Shown in pieces: positions 32,285 through 40,651 of a DNA stretch of 64,000 nucleotides (position 1 is its first letter; each line of letters opens with the position of its first letter). The translations under genes were made by a program, and so were the position numbers. Location: NCBI RefSeq assembly GCF_053078305.1, contig NZ_CP166879.1, one strand, 5' to 3'. The notes under the pieces were generated by a model that saw nothing but the letters and a program-made list of their open reading frames with translations, made no database searches and was not told the DNA's origin.

Positions 32285-32587
32285 TTATTTTTTGTTCTGA
32301 TCGCGCAGCATCGCTTCACGTAAAATTGCGTTCAGGCGAGTTTGATAGCCTTTACCTGGTCGCTTCAACCATTCCATCACATCAGCATCAATACGCACCG
32401 AAGCCTGAGTTTTCAATGGCCGATAAAACTTACCACGTTCGGCGTTAGACCATTGCTCATCGCTGGAAGGTGGGATATCACTGTAATCAATATCTTCGTC
32501 GGATTTATTCGCCAGCGCCTTCAGTTCGGCCTCATGCTGCACATCGAGTGTAGAGGGTGCCCCTCGTTTATGTTTAACCATGCTCAT
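32285..32587 (-). CDS. BrnA-like antitoxin (DUF4415/CopG-like)
   Basis: About 100 aa from MSMVKHKRG; C-terminal RIDADVMEWLKRPGKGYQTRLNAILREAM; start overlaps the stop of the upstream toxin ORF. Confidence 0.65.
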   Translation of the reverse strand: MSMVKHKRGAPSTLDVQHEAELKALANKSDEDIDYSDIPPSSDEQWSNAERGKFYRPLKTQASVRIDADVMEWLKRPGKGYQTRLNAILREAMLRDQNKK

Positions 32588-32888
32588 AGCGACTCCTCTC
32601 TTTACGATCTGCTTTTCGTGCACTGATGATTCGAATAATTTCATTTCCGCTTTCGAAACGGATGGTATGCGCAACCAGAATAACCACGATACCGTGAACC
32701 AAGCCGATAGTCTGCCAGCGATACTCACCGTTTTCTATGCGATCTTGCTGTGACAAATGTTGTGGATCATCAAACACTAACACCGCATCTTCAAAGCGGA
32801 TGCCATGTTTCACCCGATTACTTTTGGCCTTGTTTGCATCCCATTCAAACTCCATTGGCATAGTTGCCATCCCTAATTGTATATACAA
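32574..32888 (-). CDS. BrnT-like toxin (DUF497, RelE/ParE superfamily ribonuclease)
   Basis: Motif EFEWDANKAKSNRVKHGIRFEDA...RIISARKADRKER typical of BrnT; several in-frame ATG starts (32888 to 32855). Confidence 0.65.
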   Translation of the reverse strand: MYIQLGMATMPMEFEWDANKAKSNRVKHGIRFEDAVLVFDDPQHLSQQDRIENGEYRWQTIGLVHGIVVILVAHTIRFESGNEIIRIISARKADRKERSRYEHG

Positions 32889-33057
32889 AAATGTATCTAC
32901 AATTATTCTGCAATTATAGCGTTGATGTTGGAAATAGCATCACGTTTTGGATAATCAACCATGAAATTGACAATGAGTAAGTTGGACTTGATTCATCCAA
33001 TAGAATTTCTCGCCTGACATGGCACACTAAACACCTCGCTGTCGTTAAGGGATTACC

Positions 33058-37326: not shown

Positions 37327-37387
37327 GGTAAGGTTTTCTACTGATACAGGAATGCTTACCAGAAATTAGCCAGGGTTGGAGCGCGAT

Positions 37388-40300
37388 ATGAGTCTCTCTT
37401 TCAGTGAAGCAAAATTAGAACAAGCGATCATTGAACTGCTACAGGATCAGGGATATCAACACCTGATCGGCGATAATGTCCCACGTTCGAGTCTCGATCA
37501 GGTCATTATCGAAGACGATCTCCGTCATTATTTAGCGGCACGCTACCAGCCTGATGGCATTACTGAAGAAGAGATTCAGCGACTGATCAAACAGTTCACC
37601 ACGCTTCCGGCCTCCGACCTTTATGAAAGCAACAAAACATTTTGTCGCTGGCTGGCAAATGGTTTTCTGTTCAAACGCGACGATCGGCAACAAAAAGATC
37701 TCTATATTGAATTGCTCGACACCCGGCATCTACCTGCCGCACTGCGCCAGATATTTGACGCCGAAGATGTCCCGTTGCAACAGGCGGCGGAACTCCCGCC
37801 TTCCTATATGAATCCGCCGCTTAACCGGATTAAGATTGTTAACCAGCTTAAAATCTCCGGCAAAGATAATCAGACTCGTATTCCTGACGGCATTCTCTAT
37901 ATCAATGGTCTGCCATTGGTCGTCTTTGAATTTAAAAGTGCGGTGCGCGAGCAGGAAGCCAGTATTGGCGATGCCTGGAAGCAGCTCTGTAAACGCTATC
38001 GCCGGGATATTCCGCAACTGTTTATCTACAACACGCTCTGCATTATTAGCGATGGCGTAAATAACCGGATGGGCAACCTGTTTGCGCCCTATGAATACTT
38101 TTACTCATGGCGCAAAGTCACCGGTAATGAAAACCGTGAACAGGACGGAATTCCATCATTGCACTCAATGATTCAGGGGCTGTTTCATCCGGTACGTCTG
38201 CTGGATGTGATTAAAAACTTTATCTGCTTCCCGGATAAAGCCAAGCACGAAGTAAAAATTTGCTGCCGATATCCGCAGTACTATGCCGCCCGCAAACTCT
38301 ATTACAGCATCAAGCAAGCGCGTAAACCTTTCGGTAGCGGTAAAGGCGGCACCTACTTTGGCGCAACGGGCTGTGGCAAAAGTTACACCATGCAATTTTT
38401 AACGCGTCTTTTGATGAAGAGCGTGGAGTTTGCCAGCCCGACCATTGTTTTGATCACCGACCGCACCGATCTGGACGATCAGCTTTCTGCGCAAATGTGC
38501 AACGCCAAAAATTACATTGGCGACGACACCATCGTTCCTGTTACCAGCCGTGAAGATTTGCGTAATCAACTGGCGGGACGCAATAGTGGCGGTGTATTCC
38601 TGACAACGATCCATAAATTCACCGAAGACACCGAACTCCTTTCTGAACGCAGCAATATCATTTGCATCTCGGACGAAGCACATCGCAGCCAGGTTAACCT
38701 CGACCAGAAAGTCATCGTCGATAAAGAAAGCGGAAAAGTACGCAAAACGTATGGCTTTGCAAAATACCTGCACGATTCACTGCCAAACGCCACCTATGTT
38801 GGCTTTACCGGCACACCGATTGACGCGACGCTCGATGTCTTCGGTGAGGTGATCGACAGTTACACCATGACCGAATCCGTTCAGGATGAAATCACTGTAC
38901 GCATCGTGTACGAAGGCCGTGCGGCTAAAGTGATCCTGGACTCCAGCAAACTGGAAGAAGTCGAAAAGTATTACGAAGAGTGCGCAAACGCAGGCACCAA
39001 TGAGTGGCAAATCGACGAAAGCAAAAAAGCCACCGCAACCATGAATGCGGTACTGGGTGATGAAGATCGGTTAAAAGCCCTCGCGGAAGATTTTGCCAAA
39101 CATTATGAAAAACGCGTAGCCGAAGGTTCCACCGTAAAAGGCAAAGCCATGTTTGTTTGTGCCAGCCGTGAAATTGCCTGGGATTTCTACCGTCAGCTTA
39201 AAGCTATTCGCCCTGCCTGGTTTGAAGTGAAGCAAGCACCCGATGGCGTCGTCCTGACGGAACAGGAACAAAAAGAGTTACCGCCTTCTGAAATGGTGAA
39301 GATGGTCATGACGCGCGGTAAAGATGACGACGAGGCGCTTTATGATTTACTGGGCACAAAAGAATATCGTAAAGAGCTGGATAAGCAATTCAAAAACGCT
39401 AAATCGAATTTCAAAATTGCCATTGTTGTTGATATGTGGCTGACCGGTTTCGACGTCCCGGAACTGGATACCATCTATATTGATAAACCCTTACAAAAAC
39501 ATAATCTTATCCAGACCATTTCTCGCGTTAACCGTAAACTGGAAGGCAAAAGTAAAGGGTTAGTGGTGGACTACATCGGCATTAAAAGCCAGATGAACCA
39601 GGCACTGGCAATGTATTCCCGCATTGATGCCACCAACTTTGAAGATATTCAGCAATCGGTAATAGAAGTTAAAAACCATCTCGATTTGTTGGGGCAAGTC
39701 TTTTACGAATTTGACAGTCGGGATTATTTTAGTGGTGAGCCACAAGCGCAATTATCCTGCCTCAACCGCGCGGCGGAATTTGTTCTGCGTACCCAGAAAG
39801 TTGAACGTCGTTTTATGGGACTGGTTAAACGCATGAAAGCCGCCTACGACGTCTGCTGCGGCAGCGAAGCATTATCACAGACAGAACGTGACTATATTCA
39901 CTATTATCTTGCTGTTCGTTCAATTGTTTTCAAACTGACGAAAGGTGACGCACCGGATGTTACCCAGATGAATGCACGCGTTCGTGAAATGATTGCAGAA
40001 GCGTTAAAAGCTGATGGCGTAGAAGAAATTTATTTTCTTGGGGATAAAAAAGCGGAATCCATCGATATTTTTGACGAAGATTATCTGGCGCGAATTAACA
40101 AAATCAAACTTCCGGCAACAAAGATCCAGTTATTACAAAAATTACTGGAAAAAGCGATCAGCGACTTCAAGAAAGTGAACCAGTTACAAGGGATTAACTT
40201 CACCCGCCGCTTCCAGGCGATTATAGATCGTTATAATGAGCGGCGAGAAGATGATGTACTCAACGGTGAAGAATTCGATACATTCAGTCAGGAAATGACC

Positions 40301-40651
40301 GATATTATCTATGATATTAAAACCGAAATGGGCACCTGGGCCGATTTAGGTATTGATATTGAAGAAAAAGCGTTTTTCGACATTCTTGCTCATATGCGCG
40401 ATAAATATCAGTTCACCTATGACGATGAAAAAATGCTGTCACTGGCAAAAGAGATGAAAAGCGTGGTTGACAACACATCGAAATATCCTGACTGGAGTAA
40501 ACGCGATGATATTAAAGCGAAACTGAAAGTTGAACTTATTCTGCTTCTACACAAGCATAAGTTCCCGCCAGTAGCGAATGATGATGTTTATATGGGTGTG
40601 CTGGCACAGGCAGAGAATTTTAAAGAACACCATATGAATGCTTTAAATTAA
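37388..40651 (+). CDS. hsdR: type I restriction endonuclease subunit (nuclease plus SF2 helicase)
   Basis: About 1087 aa from MSLSFSEAKL (GGAG SD upstream); PD-(D/E)xK motif VVFEFK, Walker A GATGCGKS, DEAH box. Confidence 0.9.
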   Translation: MSLSFSEAKLEQAIIELLQDQGYQHLIGDNVPRSSLDQVIIEDDLRHYLAARYQPDGITEEEIQRLIKQFTTLPASDLYESNKTFCRWLANGFLFKRDDRQQKDLYIELLDTRHLPAALRQIFDAEDVPLQQAAELPPSYMNPPLNRIKIVNQLKISGKDNQTRIPDGILYINGLPLVVFEFKSAVREQEASIGDAWKQLCKRYRRDIPQLFIYNTLCIISDGVNNRMGNLFAPYEYFYSWRKVTGNENREQDGIPSLHSMIQGLFHPVRLLDVIKNFICFPDKAKHEVKICCRYPQYYAARKLYYSIKQARKPFGSGKGGTYFGATGCGKSYTMQFLTRLLMKSVEFASPTIVLITDRTDLDDQLSAQMCNAKNYIGDDTIVPVTSREDLRNQLAGRNSGGVFLTTIHKFTEDTELLSERSNIICISDEAHRSQVNLDQKVIVDKESGKVRKTYGFAKYLHDSLPNATYVGFTGTPIDATLDVFGEVIDSYTMTESVQDEITVRIVYEGRAAKVILDSSKLEEVEKYYEECANAGTNEWQIDESKKATATMNAVLGDEDRLKALAEDFAKHYEKRVAEGSTVKGKAMFVCASREIAWDFYRQLKAIRPAWFEVKQAPDGVVLTEQEQKELPPSEMVKMVMTRGKDDDEALYDLLGTKEYRKELDKQFKNAKSNFKIAIVVDMWLTGFDVPELDTIYIDKPLQKHNLIQTISRVNRKLEGKSKGLVVDYIGIKSQMNQALAMYSRIDATNFEDIQQSVIEVKNHLDLLGQVFYEFDSRDYFSGEPQAQLSCLNRAAEFVLRTQKVERRFMGLVKRMKAAYDVCCGSEALSQTERDYIHYYLAVRSIVFKLTKGDAPDVTQMNARVREMIAEALKADGVEEIYFLGDKKAESIDIFDEDYLARINKIKLPATKIQLLQKLLEKAISDFKKVNQLQGINFTRRFQAIIDRYNERREDDVLNGEEFDTFSQEMTDIIYDIKTEMGTWADLGIDIEEKAFFDILAHMRDKYQFTYDDEKMLSLAKEMKSVVDNTSKYPDWSKRDDIKAKLKVELILLLHKHKFPPVANDDVYMGVLAQAENFKEHHMNALN

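Follow-up and report, generated by a model that had tools for sequence, protein, structure and literature searches.

The DNA between yjiA and symE in the 64-kb stretch analyzed here (the window) is very probably a standard alternative allele of the immigration control region (ICR) of E. coli. It consists of separate defence and addiction modules that lie side by side and are inherited as a block, with a broken methylase gene in this copy. The cassette itself is already known and is not unusual. Only the deletion of 4 bases, which disrupts the methylase gene hsdM, sets the window copy apart.

Borders, gene content and distribution of the cassette

The cassette lies between anchors that are shared with E. 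coli K-12. On the left, yjiA (31295..32251, + strand), the conserved left anchor of the ICR, corresponds to the GTPase gene annotated as yjiA in locus L001 (3096..4052). DNA on this side is 98% identical to that of K-12 until position 32251, where the similarity ends. Alignment to K-12 found no similarity within 32252-40740. Similarity is back from 40741, and both flanks are 94-98% identical to K-12. On the right, the swapped segment is bordered by the conserved gene symE (40866..41204, +; NCBIfam NF010128 SymE, 219 bits against a cut-off of 132). Its start is overlapped by symR (40795..40871, -), which specifies an antisense RNA antitoxin (Rfam RF01809, full length, 94.3 bits against a gathering score of 61), as is characteristic of a SymE/SymR type I toxin-antitoxin system. 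The region is recognizable as an ICR from its variable interior between conserved anchors (yjiA-yjiX-btsT at one end, yjiS-yjiR-rpn-mdtM-yjiN at the opposite end), and the orthologous loci have the anchor genes annotated. We considered the borders of a mobile element as well, but the cassette has no meaningful flanking direct or inverted repeats.

The gene order in the window is brnA-brnT, an Mrr-like gene, hsdM-hsdS-hsdR and then symR/symE, with all three hsd genes on the + strand. The initial annotation had named a BrnT/BrnA-like pair, an Mrr-type nuclease and hsdM-hsdS-hsdR in one orientation. Each of these genes is present where it had been placed, and profile searches uphold the assignments to BrnT, BrnA, Mrr_cat, HsdM, HsdS and HsdR. 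The annotation was also right that the cassette differs from that of K-12 and that the locus is a high-turnover defence hotspot, as is recognized in the literature (PMC12707154). As it had proposed, mcrB, mcrC, yjiT and yjiV of K-12 have no match in the entire 64-kb window. However, it placed mcrBC of K-12 between yjiA and symE, and in K-12 these genes are beyond symE.

Cassette-like variation at the ICR has been described since the 1990s-2000s. The gene order found in the window recurs in the annotation of 789 of the 5426 complete E. coli genomes. About 1 in 6 sequenced strains carry this version of the ICR, and the carriers include Nissle 1917, ATCC 11775 (the type strain) and ST131 isolates. 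In these strains the ICR (E. coli defence hotspot 36) has the same position, from yjiA to symE/yjiS, and the same order of brnA-brnT, Mrr-like gene, hsdM-hsdS-hsdR and symE. The window proteins are 98-100% identical to theirs, except for HsdS. Unlike those alleles, the window copy has a rare hsdS allele and a private 4-bp frameshift deletion in hsdM. Counted separately in the same 5426 genomes, the hsdM allele occurs in 872 (16%), the Mrr-like nuclease in 880 and brnTA in 2112. Co-inheritance of the nuclease and this hsdMSR family is thus tight, and functional co-adaptation could, though with low probability, explain it. Among the matches listed, only three genomes cover >90% of the cassette, and the next ones cover 89%, in three pieces. 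According to a 2025 review, the ICR holds a type IA, IB or ID system, each paired with a type IV enzyme particular to it, and also carries brnAT, symE/symR and rpn (PMC12707154).

A frameshift in hsdM

hsdM (34288..35903, +) is a pseudogene in the window and is seen as two open reading frames (34288..35043 and 35040..35903). A 4-bp deletion at 35017/35018, evident as a gap in comparison with L001, leads to a frameshift stop at 35041-35043; the rest of the frame starts anew at ATG 35040, which overlaps that stop. When the bases CAGC are put back, the gene encodes a 539-aa HsdM that is 99.4% identical to that of Nissle 1917 and contains HsdM_N and N6_Mtase domains. The N6_Mtase domain (residues 161-499) spans the break, which falls between the SAM-binding motifs (DPCCGSAG and YGQE) and the catalytic NPPF motif. 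None of the 872 E. coli genomes with the allele has the deletion; all keep the 4 bases. The initial annotation had the three hsd genes and their order right, but took hsdM as intact and overlooked the frameshift.

The other two genes of the type I system are intact. hsdS (35893..37293, +) encodes a specificity subunit of 466 aa (PADLOC Specificity_I, E 4e-121) and has a GC content of ~0.36. Its product is 99.4% identical to the HsdS of TUM13936, the sole such strain, versus 38% to that of Nissle 1917. hsdR (37388..40651, +) encodes a restriction subunit of 1087 aa (TIGR00348 hsdR, 469 bits, cut-off 285) with the Pfam domains HSDR_N, SWI2_SNF2/ResIII, T1R_D3-like and T1RH-like_C, 99.6% identical to HsdR of Nissle 1917. 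The locus thus has the adjacent hsdM, hsdS and hsdR genes, with characteristic domains, of a type I restriction-modification system, but the frames of only two of the three subunits are intact. A terminator-like hairpin between hsdS and hsdR (37302..37321, +; a pattern match in a consensus scan, with 7 pairs, 6 of them GC) would fit transcription of hsdMS and hsdR as separate units.

Type I enzymes require M2S1 for methylation and restriction alike. Because hsdM is frameshifted, the system in the window is most likely r- m-, despite the intact hsdS and hsdR. Breakage of hsdM with no lesion in hsdS or hsdR suggests that the system was inactivated recently. We also considered phase variation of hsdM, but the deletion site is no simple-sequence repeat and has just 2 bp of microhomology (CA) flanking it.

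Two other readings would leave the methylase active. An error of sequencing or assembly could have produced the frameshift, in which case the organism itself would have a fully active type I system. The lesion recurs in none of the 872 genomes with the allele, hsdS and hsdR have not decayed (99.4-99.8% identical to intact orthologues), and a different frameshift is annotated in hsdM of the mip270_04 assembly, which may also be an error. However, sequencing errors are usually of the homopolymer type, whereas this one would remove 4 bp from non-repetitive sequence that has only 2 bp of CA microhomology at its flanks, and natural decay of hsd genes is common at this locus (for example, the remnant in L005 and the IS1 deletions), and we consider an artefact unlikely. 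We find it far harder to believe that the split gene is functional, with one fragment stopping at TGA 35041-35043, a second restarting at ATG 35040 and the two assembling into an active methylase. The ATGA stop/start overlap at 35040-35043 makes a two-piece HsdM conceivable, and each fragment keeps whole motifs, with motif I and YGQE in the first and NPPF in the second. But no Shine-Dalgarno sequence precedes the ATG at 35040, the Pfam catalytic domain (161-499) is cut mid-way, and eight N6_Mtase core residues are lost and seven aberrant ones gained. We are aware of no type I HsdM that is split in this way.

Family of the type I system

The system most likely belongs to type ID. Within a type I family, HsdM and HsdR are ~90% or more identical (a rule cited in PMC2481252), and the window proteins are far from this level in comparison with the other families. 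HsdM and HsdR are 22.5% and 17.1% identical to those of EcoKI (type IA, K-12) and 23.2% and 16.3% identical to those of CFT073, the ICR system of which is type IB (PMC8287963). HsdR of the type IC enzyme EcoR124I (PDB 2W00) matches with only 88 bits (E 4e-24) over residues 142-510, a distant relationship, and type IC, like IA and IB, can be set aside. We had considered type IB at first, with Nissle 1917 carrying the cassette of the window, but the proteins of CFT073 are just 16-23% identical. The CFT073 cassette also differs: it has DUF262, then hsdR-hsdM-hsdS of the EcoAI family (R-M-S order, with HsdR annotated as EcoAI/FtnUII family), then symE and GmrSD. The ICR system of O157, like that of CFT073, is called type IB in published papers. 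Since types IA, IB and IC are excluded by identity, and since IA, IB and ID are the only families at the ICR in a survey of 9,040 Enterobacteriaceae genomes (PMC12707154), type ID is what remains. A look-up of database clusters for a family name gave generic names only, and a literature search on the type I system of Nissle 1917 found nothing useful.

The named type ID members StySBLI, EcoR9I and KpnAI resemble the window system in several respects. They are allelic to the IA and IB hsd genes at the ICR, as is the window system. Both occur in E. coli, Salmonella and Klebsiella, and both are distinct in sequence from IA, IB and IC. In contrast to the named members, the window system is probably inactive, and it is likened to them by elimination and from the literature. 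Elimination can fail, and the system could belong to another family, such as IE or an unnamed one. We regard this as improbable. In addition to the restriction of the ICR to three families, the 12% frequency of ID in the survey (PMC12707154) is close to the 16% of the window allele in E. coli, and proteins of Salmonella and Klebsiella fall within the HsdM and HsdR clusters formed at 90% identity, so that the family at >=90% identity has the span of the three named ID members. Also, staphylococcal hsdMSR operons group with StySBLI (PMC10030836).

The Mrr-like nuclease

The gene at 33058..34224 (+) encodes a 388-aa Mrr-family nuclease. An Mrr_cat domain (PF04471, E 4e-29) covers residues 243-359, and over residues 216-383 the protein has 31% identity to K-12 Mrr (residues 137-304). 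The catalytic D...QxK motif is intact, with D274, D278, Q295 and K297 invariant in 39 homologues. The N-terminal half has no similarity to K-12 Mrr and no match to the Mrr_N Pfam domain that EcoKMrr has; the initial annotation had called this half unrelated. The protein had also been called atypical, yet 880 of 5426 complete E. coli genomes have it, and the whole cassette occurs in 789. There is no NCBIfam model for the protein. The defence-system search identified it as the PADLOC candidate PDC-S02, itself a bioinformatic candidate, by a full-length profile match (model PDLC04796, E 7e-207, residues 1-386 against 1-383 of 390).

The protein very probably constitutes a module of its own, a single-gene Mrr-family nuclease. 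In the predicted layout, a long linker helix joins a winged-helix N-terminal half to the C-terminal Mrr_cat nuclease. The N-terminal half would bind DNA and the D...QxK domain would cut it. By analogy with Mrr and MspJI, the nuclease probably attacks foreign, differently modified DNA. Like the gene for EcoKMrr, a type IV modification-dependent enzyme, the Mrr-like gene adjoins yjiA and a type I system, and the N-terminal fold class would be a winged helix in both proteins. However, the Mrr-like protein is 84 residues longer than EcoKMrr, and its N terminus is predicted to have about two winged-helix-like units versus one. The one PDC-S02 representative that has been assayed, a distant protein of a cold-seep organism, did not protect against T4, T5 or T7 (bioRxiv 10.1101/2024.09.26.614923). 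A more elaborate version, in which the nuclease is modification-dependent and tuned to spare the methylation of the neighboring type I system, while brnTA locks the block in place, is in our view very unlikely.

brnTA and the probable independence of the modules

The pair next to yjiA is predicted to be a type II toxin-antitoxin system. brnT (32574..32861, -) encodes a 95-aa toxin (Pfam BrnT_toxin, PF04365, E 7e-25) that is identical (100%) to BrnT of Nissle 1917 and ~87% identical to the toxin chain of PDB 7VD7 (7VD7_A, E 5e-53). brnA (32285..32587, -) encodes a 100-aa antitoxin (BrnA_antitoxin, PF14384, E 3e-17) that matches the antitoxin chain 7VD7_B (E 1e-16), is 100% identical to the TUM13936 protein and is annotated in L001, L002 and L007. 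NCBIfam has no models for BrnT or BrnA, and a literature search on 7VD7 found nothing useful. On the - strand, brnT (32861..32574) is upstream of brnA (32587..32285) and overlaps it by 14 bp, the arrangement of a toxin-first operon. The BrnTA system of Brucella abortus shares both Pfam families and has the toxin gene first, overlapping the antitoxin gene, although its toxin (3U97) is only distantly related to that of the window (E 6e-4). BrnT would be an RNase, and brnTA most likely serves as an addiction module that stabilises itself, at the end of the island nearest yjiA. A GC-rich terminator-like hairpin (32263..32280, +; 7 GC pairs with a T-rich tail after them in a consensus scan) lies between the convergent yjiA and brnA. 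In the divergent intergenic region from brnT to the Mrr-like gene (32862..33057, no strand assigned) are two weak sigma-70-like matches on the + strand (32864-32892 and 32928-32955), a count not above chance. Because such scans were at or below chance level, we present promoter and terminator hits as pattern matches.

The initial annotation suggested that the toxin-antitoxin and nuclease genes might form a composite defence unit. In such a unit, the type I system would cooperate with BrnTA and the Mrr-like nuclease, and the toxin would be freed, for example, when a phage disables restriction. The genes are adjacent, brnT and the nuclease gene diverge from a shared 196-bp intergenic region, and in the nine E. 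coli loci inspected (L001, L002, L004-L007 and L014-L016) brnTA was seen nowhere but at the end next to yjiA, either of the cassette or of a derivative shortened by deletion. Despite this proximity, the idea is unsupported because the modules are found apart in other genomes. brnTA is 2.4 times as common as the nuclease (2112 versus 880 genomes) and often survives alone beside an IS1-associated deletion. Homologues of the nuclease in Kushneria, Modicisalibacter and Serratia have unrelated type I or BREX systems as neighbors, and the ~8 kb to each side of them holds no BrnT or BrnA Pfam match. In addition, PADLOC treats the nuclease as a single-gene candidate, and no PADLOC model matches BrnT or BrnA. 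Cooperation among the modules thus seems highly improbable, and independent modules inherited as a block remain our preferred reading.

Significance

Beyond annotation, the importance of the cassette is slight, as hundreds of genomes already have the allele in their annotation. We found nothing published on what the Mrr-like PDC-S02 protein targets or whether it is active, although it is widespread in E. coli, with Nissle 1917 and ST131 among the carriers. For the window strain, the broken hsdM probably means the loss of both type I restriction and modification, affecting transformability and the methylome. If the nuclease and the type I system are in fact co-adapted, then the loss of hsdM would also alter what the nuclease tolerates in this strain.

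A non-K-12 cassette in the immigration control region

The window aligns to E. coli K-12 DNA up to position 32251 (btsT-yjiX-yjiA), and the alignment resumes at 40741 (symR/symE) and again at 41240 (yjiS onward). The 8.5 kb between 32251 and 40741 has no similarity to K-12 DNA, and mcrB, mcrC, yjiT and yjiV of K-12 match nothing in the whole window at either the protein or the DNA level. Thus, the initial annotation was correct in describing a non-K-12 cassette between yjiA and symE that lacks mcrBC, yjiT and yjiV. It erred in placing mcrBC of K-12 between yjiA and symE; those genes sit on the far side of symE.

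The gene layout was taken from the list of open reading frames (ORFs) in the window, together with RefSeq annotations at orthologous loci. yjiA (plus strand) ends at 32251 and is followed on the minus strand by brnA (32285..32587, 100 aa) and brnT (32574..32861, 95 aa). The plus strand then carries genes for an Mrr-type nuclease (33058..34224, 388 aa), hsdM (34288..35903, 539 aa if repaired), hsdS (35893..37293, 466 aa, GC about 0.36) and hsdR (37388..40651, 1087 aa). symR (40795..40871, minus strand, 77 nt) and symE (40866..41204, plus strand, 112 aa) come next and, beyond symE, yjiS, yjiR, an rpn-family gene and mdtM.

Matches to Pfam, PADLOC and NCBIfam models bear out the families first proposed (BrnT, BrnA, Mrr_cat and the Hsd subunits). 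BrnT matches BrnT_toxin (Pfam, E 7e-25), BrnA matches BrnA_antitoxin (Pfam, E 3e-17), and the pair closely matches a toxin-antitoxin complex of solved structure (PDB 7VD7). Repaired HsdM contains HsdM_N and N6_Mtase domains, and HsdS matches PADLOC type I specificity models. HsdR has HSDR_N, SWI2_SNF2/ResIII, T1R_D3-like and T1RH-like_C domains and passes the TIGR00348 cut-off. The Rfam match of symR covers its full length, and symE scores above the NCBIfam equivalog cut-off.

The Rpn-family (YhgA-like) recombination-promoting nuclease gene (43242-44186, minus strand) is intact at 314 aa; its K-12 counterpart is the pseudogene rpnD. Its 3' part (near 43401-43414) has several small indels relative to strain TUM13936, which has 4 codons more in this gene. 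The gap between tsr and btsT holds a low-GC (about 0.40) insert of ~820 bp (27877-28697) that is common to the window and TUM13936 and is missing from K-12. Its ORF (28046..28588, plus strand) encodes a 180-aa hypothetical protein, and the only matches are a weak one to TnsA-like endonucleases (Pfam E 0.11) and a marginal one to a PADLOC orphan methyltransferase (E 9e-4).

Distribution in E. coli

The cassette is a common, already described allele of the immigration control region (ICR). In a reference set of 5426 complete E. coli genomes, the whole cassette (at least 80% covered) is present in 789, the Mrr-like gene in 880, the hsdM allele of the window in 872 and brnTA in 2112. Nissle 1917 is among the carriers, as are the type strain ATCC 11775 and O25b:H4-ST131 isolates, and nearly all copies are chromosomal. 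The locus with its core flanks (28200-44900) is only 98.2% identical to the best-matching complete E. coli genome, and the right flank is at most 99.0% identical to any; therefore, the source strain is outside the set of 5426.

The hsdS allele of the window is rare. Among the matches listed in a whole-cassette search, only three genomes covered more than 90% of the cassette. HsdS of TUM13936, the sole one of the three compared at the protein level, is 99.4% identical to that of the window; HsdS of Nissle 1917 is only 38% identical.

brnTA, the nuclease and hsdMSR are probably separate modules

The toxin-antitoxin and nuclease genes had been proposed to form a composite defence unit. The evidence says that brnTA, the nuclease and hsdMSR are not one unit: brnTA is often found alone, and nuclease homologues occur elsewhere with other neighbours. 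Genomes with brnTA outnumber those with the nuclease 2.4-fold (2112 vs 880). Nine E. coli loci were inspected; in three of them (L006, L014 and L016) brnTA stands alone beside IS1, and everything up to mdtM is deleted. This brnTA-only form of the ICR is recurrent (locus about 9790-13640), with IS1 followed by a deletion that reaches mdtM and removes the nuclease, hsdMSR, symE, yjiS, yjiR and rpn. Another E. coli locus, L005, keeps the nuclease next to an hsdM'-'hsdR remnant. Nuclease homologues in Kushneria, Modicisalibacter and Serratia have no BrnT or BrnA Pfam match within ~8 kb on each side; their neighbours are an EcoEI-type type I system including a TIR-domain gene, a BREX system and a different type I system, respectively.

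Within E. coli, the nuclease and the hsd family of the window are tightly co-inherited (880 vs 872 genomes). A recent review makes a matching remark: every type I family is accompanied by a type IV enzyme of its own (PMC12707154).

The Mrr-like nuclease

Mrr_cat covers residues 243-359 of the 388-aa protein. In the protein comparison with K-12 Mrr, this C-terminal domain has 31% identity and the N-terminal half has no similarity. Homologues are widespread and conserve D274, D278, Q295 and K297 as well as many N-terminal residues. An AlphaFold2 model (mean pLDDT 85, >90 over most of residues 10-210) predicts two helix-plus-hairpin units, a long helix (219-244) and the nuclease domain, in that order. 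We infer that the predicted winged-helix part likely recognizes DNA, possibly modified DNA, and that recognition would be coupled to Mrr-type cleavage. The protein matches PDC-S02, a PADLOC single-gene candidate for phage defence, over its full length (E 7e-207). One distant PDC-S02 representative (n=1) did not protect against T4, T5 or T7 (bioRxiv 10.1101/2024.09.26.614923).

Family of the type I system

The ICR systems of CFT073 and O157 have been placed in type IB (PMC2481252; PMC8287963), and from this literature our initial reading of the window system was also type IB. We dropped it, as the CFT073 cassette is different (yjiA, a DUF262 gene, hsdR of the EcoAI family with 810 aa, hsdM, hsdS, symE, GmrSD) and its HsdM and HsdR are only 23.2% and 16.3% identical to those of the window. 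Identities to type IA EcoKI of K-12 are 22.5% (HsdM) and 17.1% (HsdR), and HsdR matches that of type IC EcoR124I at only E 4e-24. According to a 2025 EcoSal Plus review of 9,040 Enterobacteriaceae genomes, the ICR holds type IA, IB and ID systems only (PMC12707154). The 90%-identity clusters of the window HsdM and HsdR contain Salmonella and Klebsiella proteins. Their presence is in line with type ID, whose known members are StySBLI, EcoR9I and KpnAI. By elimination, these comparisons argue that the window system is very probably type ID. A type ID enzyme would be expected to have a bipartite m6A recognition site in which 6 bp separate the methylated adenines.

Nissle 1917 and CFT073 are usually counted as near relatives. 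Their ICR cassettes are different, with brnTA, the Mrr-like gene and hsdMSR in Nissle 1917 and DUF262, type IB hsdRMS and GmrSD in CFT073.

A frameshift in hsdM

The initial annotation described an hsdM-hsdS-hsdR locus and overlooked a 4-bp deletion that divides hsdM into two ORFs (34288..35043 and 35040..35903). Alignment to TUM13936, in which hsdM is intact, places a single gap (CAGC) at 35017/35018, and putting CAGC back gives a 539-aa HsdM with 99.4% identity to that of Nissle 1917. A 71-base probe over the deletion site has a match in 872 E. coli genomes, and every match is 94.7% identical. This value corresponds to 71/75 positions, so all 872 retain the four bases. In the brnTA and Mrr-like segments, the closest relative (99.3-99.4%) is strain mip270_04, whose hsdM (14019-15637 of its locus) is also annotated as frameshifted, at another position and with CAGC present.

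The break lies inside the N6_Mtase domain (161-499), after the SAM-binding motifs (DPCCGSAG and YGQE) and before NPPF. An in-frame ATG overlaps the stop TGA of the frameshift (ATGA, 35040-35043) and reopens the remaining hsdM as a 287-aa ORF. Termination-reinitiation at this ATGA could yield a two-piece HsdM, an outcome that we regard as highly improbable. Type I enzymes require an M2S1 core for methylation and restriction alike, and with hsdM broken the type I system of the window would most likely be null. Neither hsdS nor hsdR is truncated, and both share 99.4-99.8% identity with intact orthologues, so the lesion would be a recent event, or else a sequencing error. In this otherwise common ICR cassette, only the rare hsdS allele and the frameshift in hsdM are specific to the strain.
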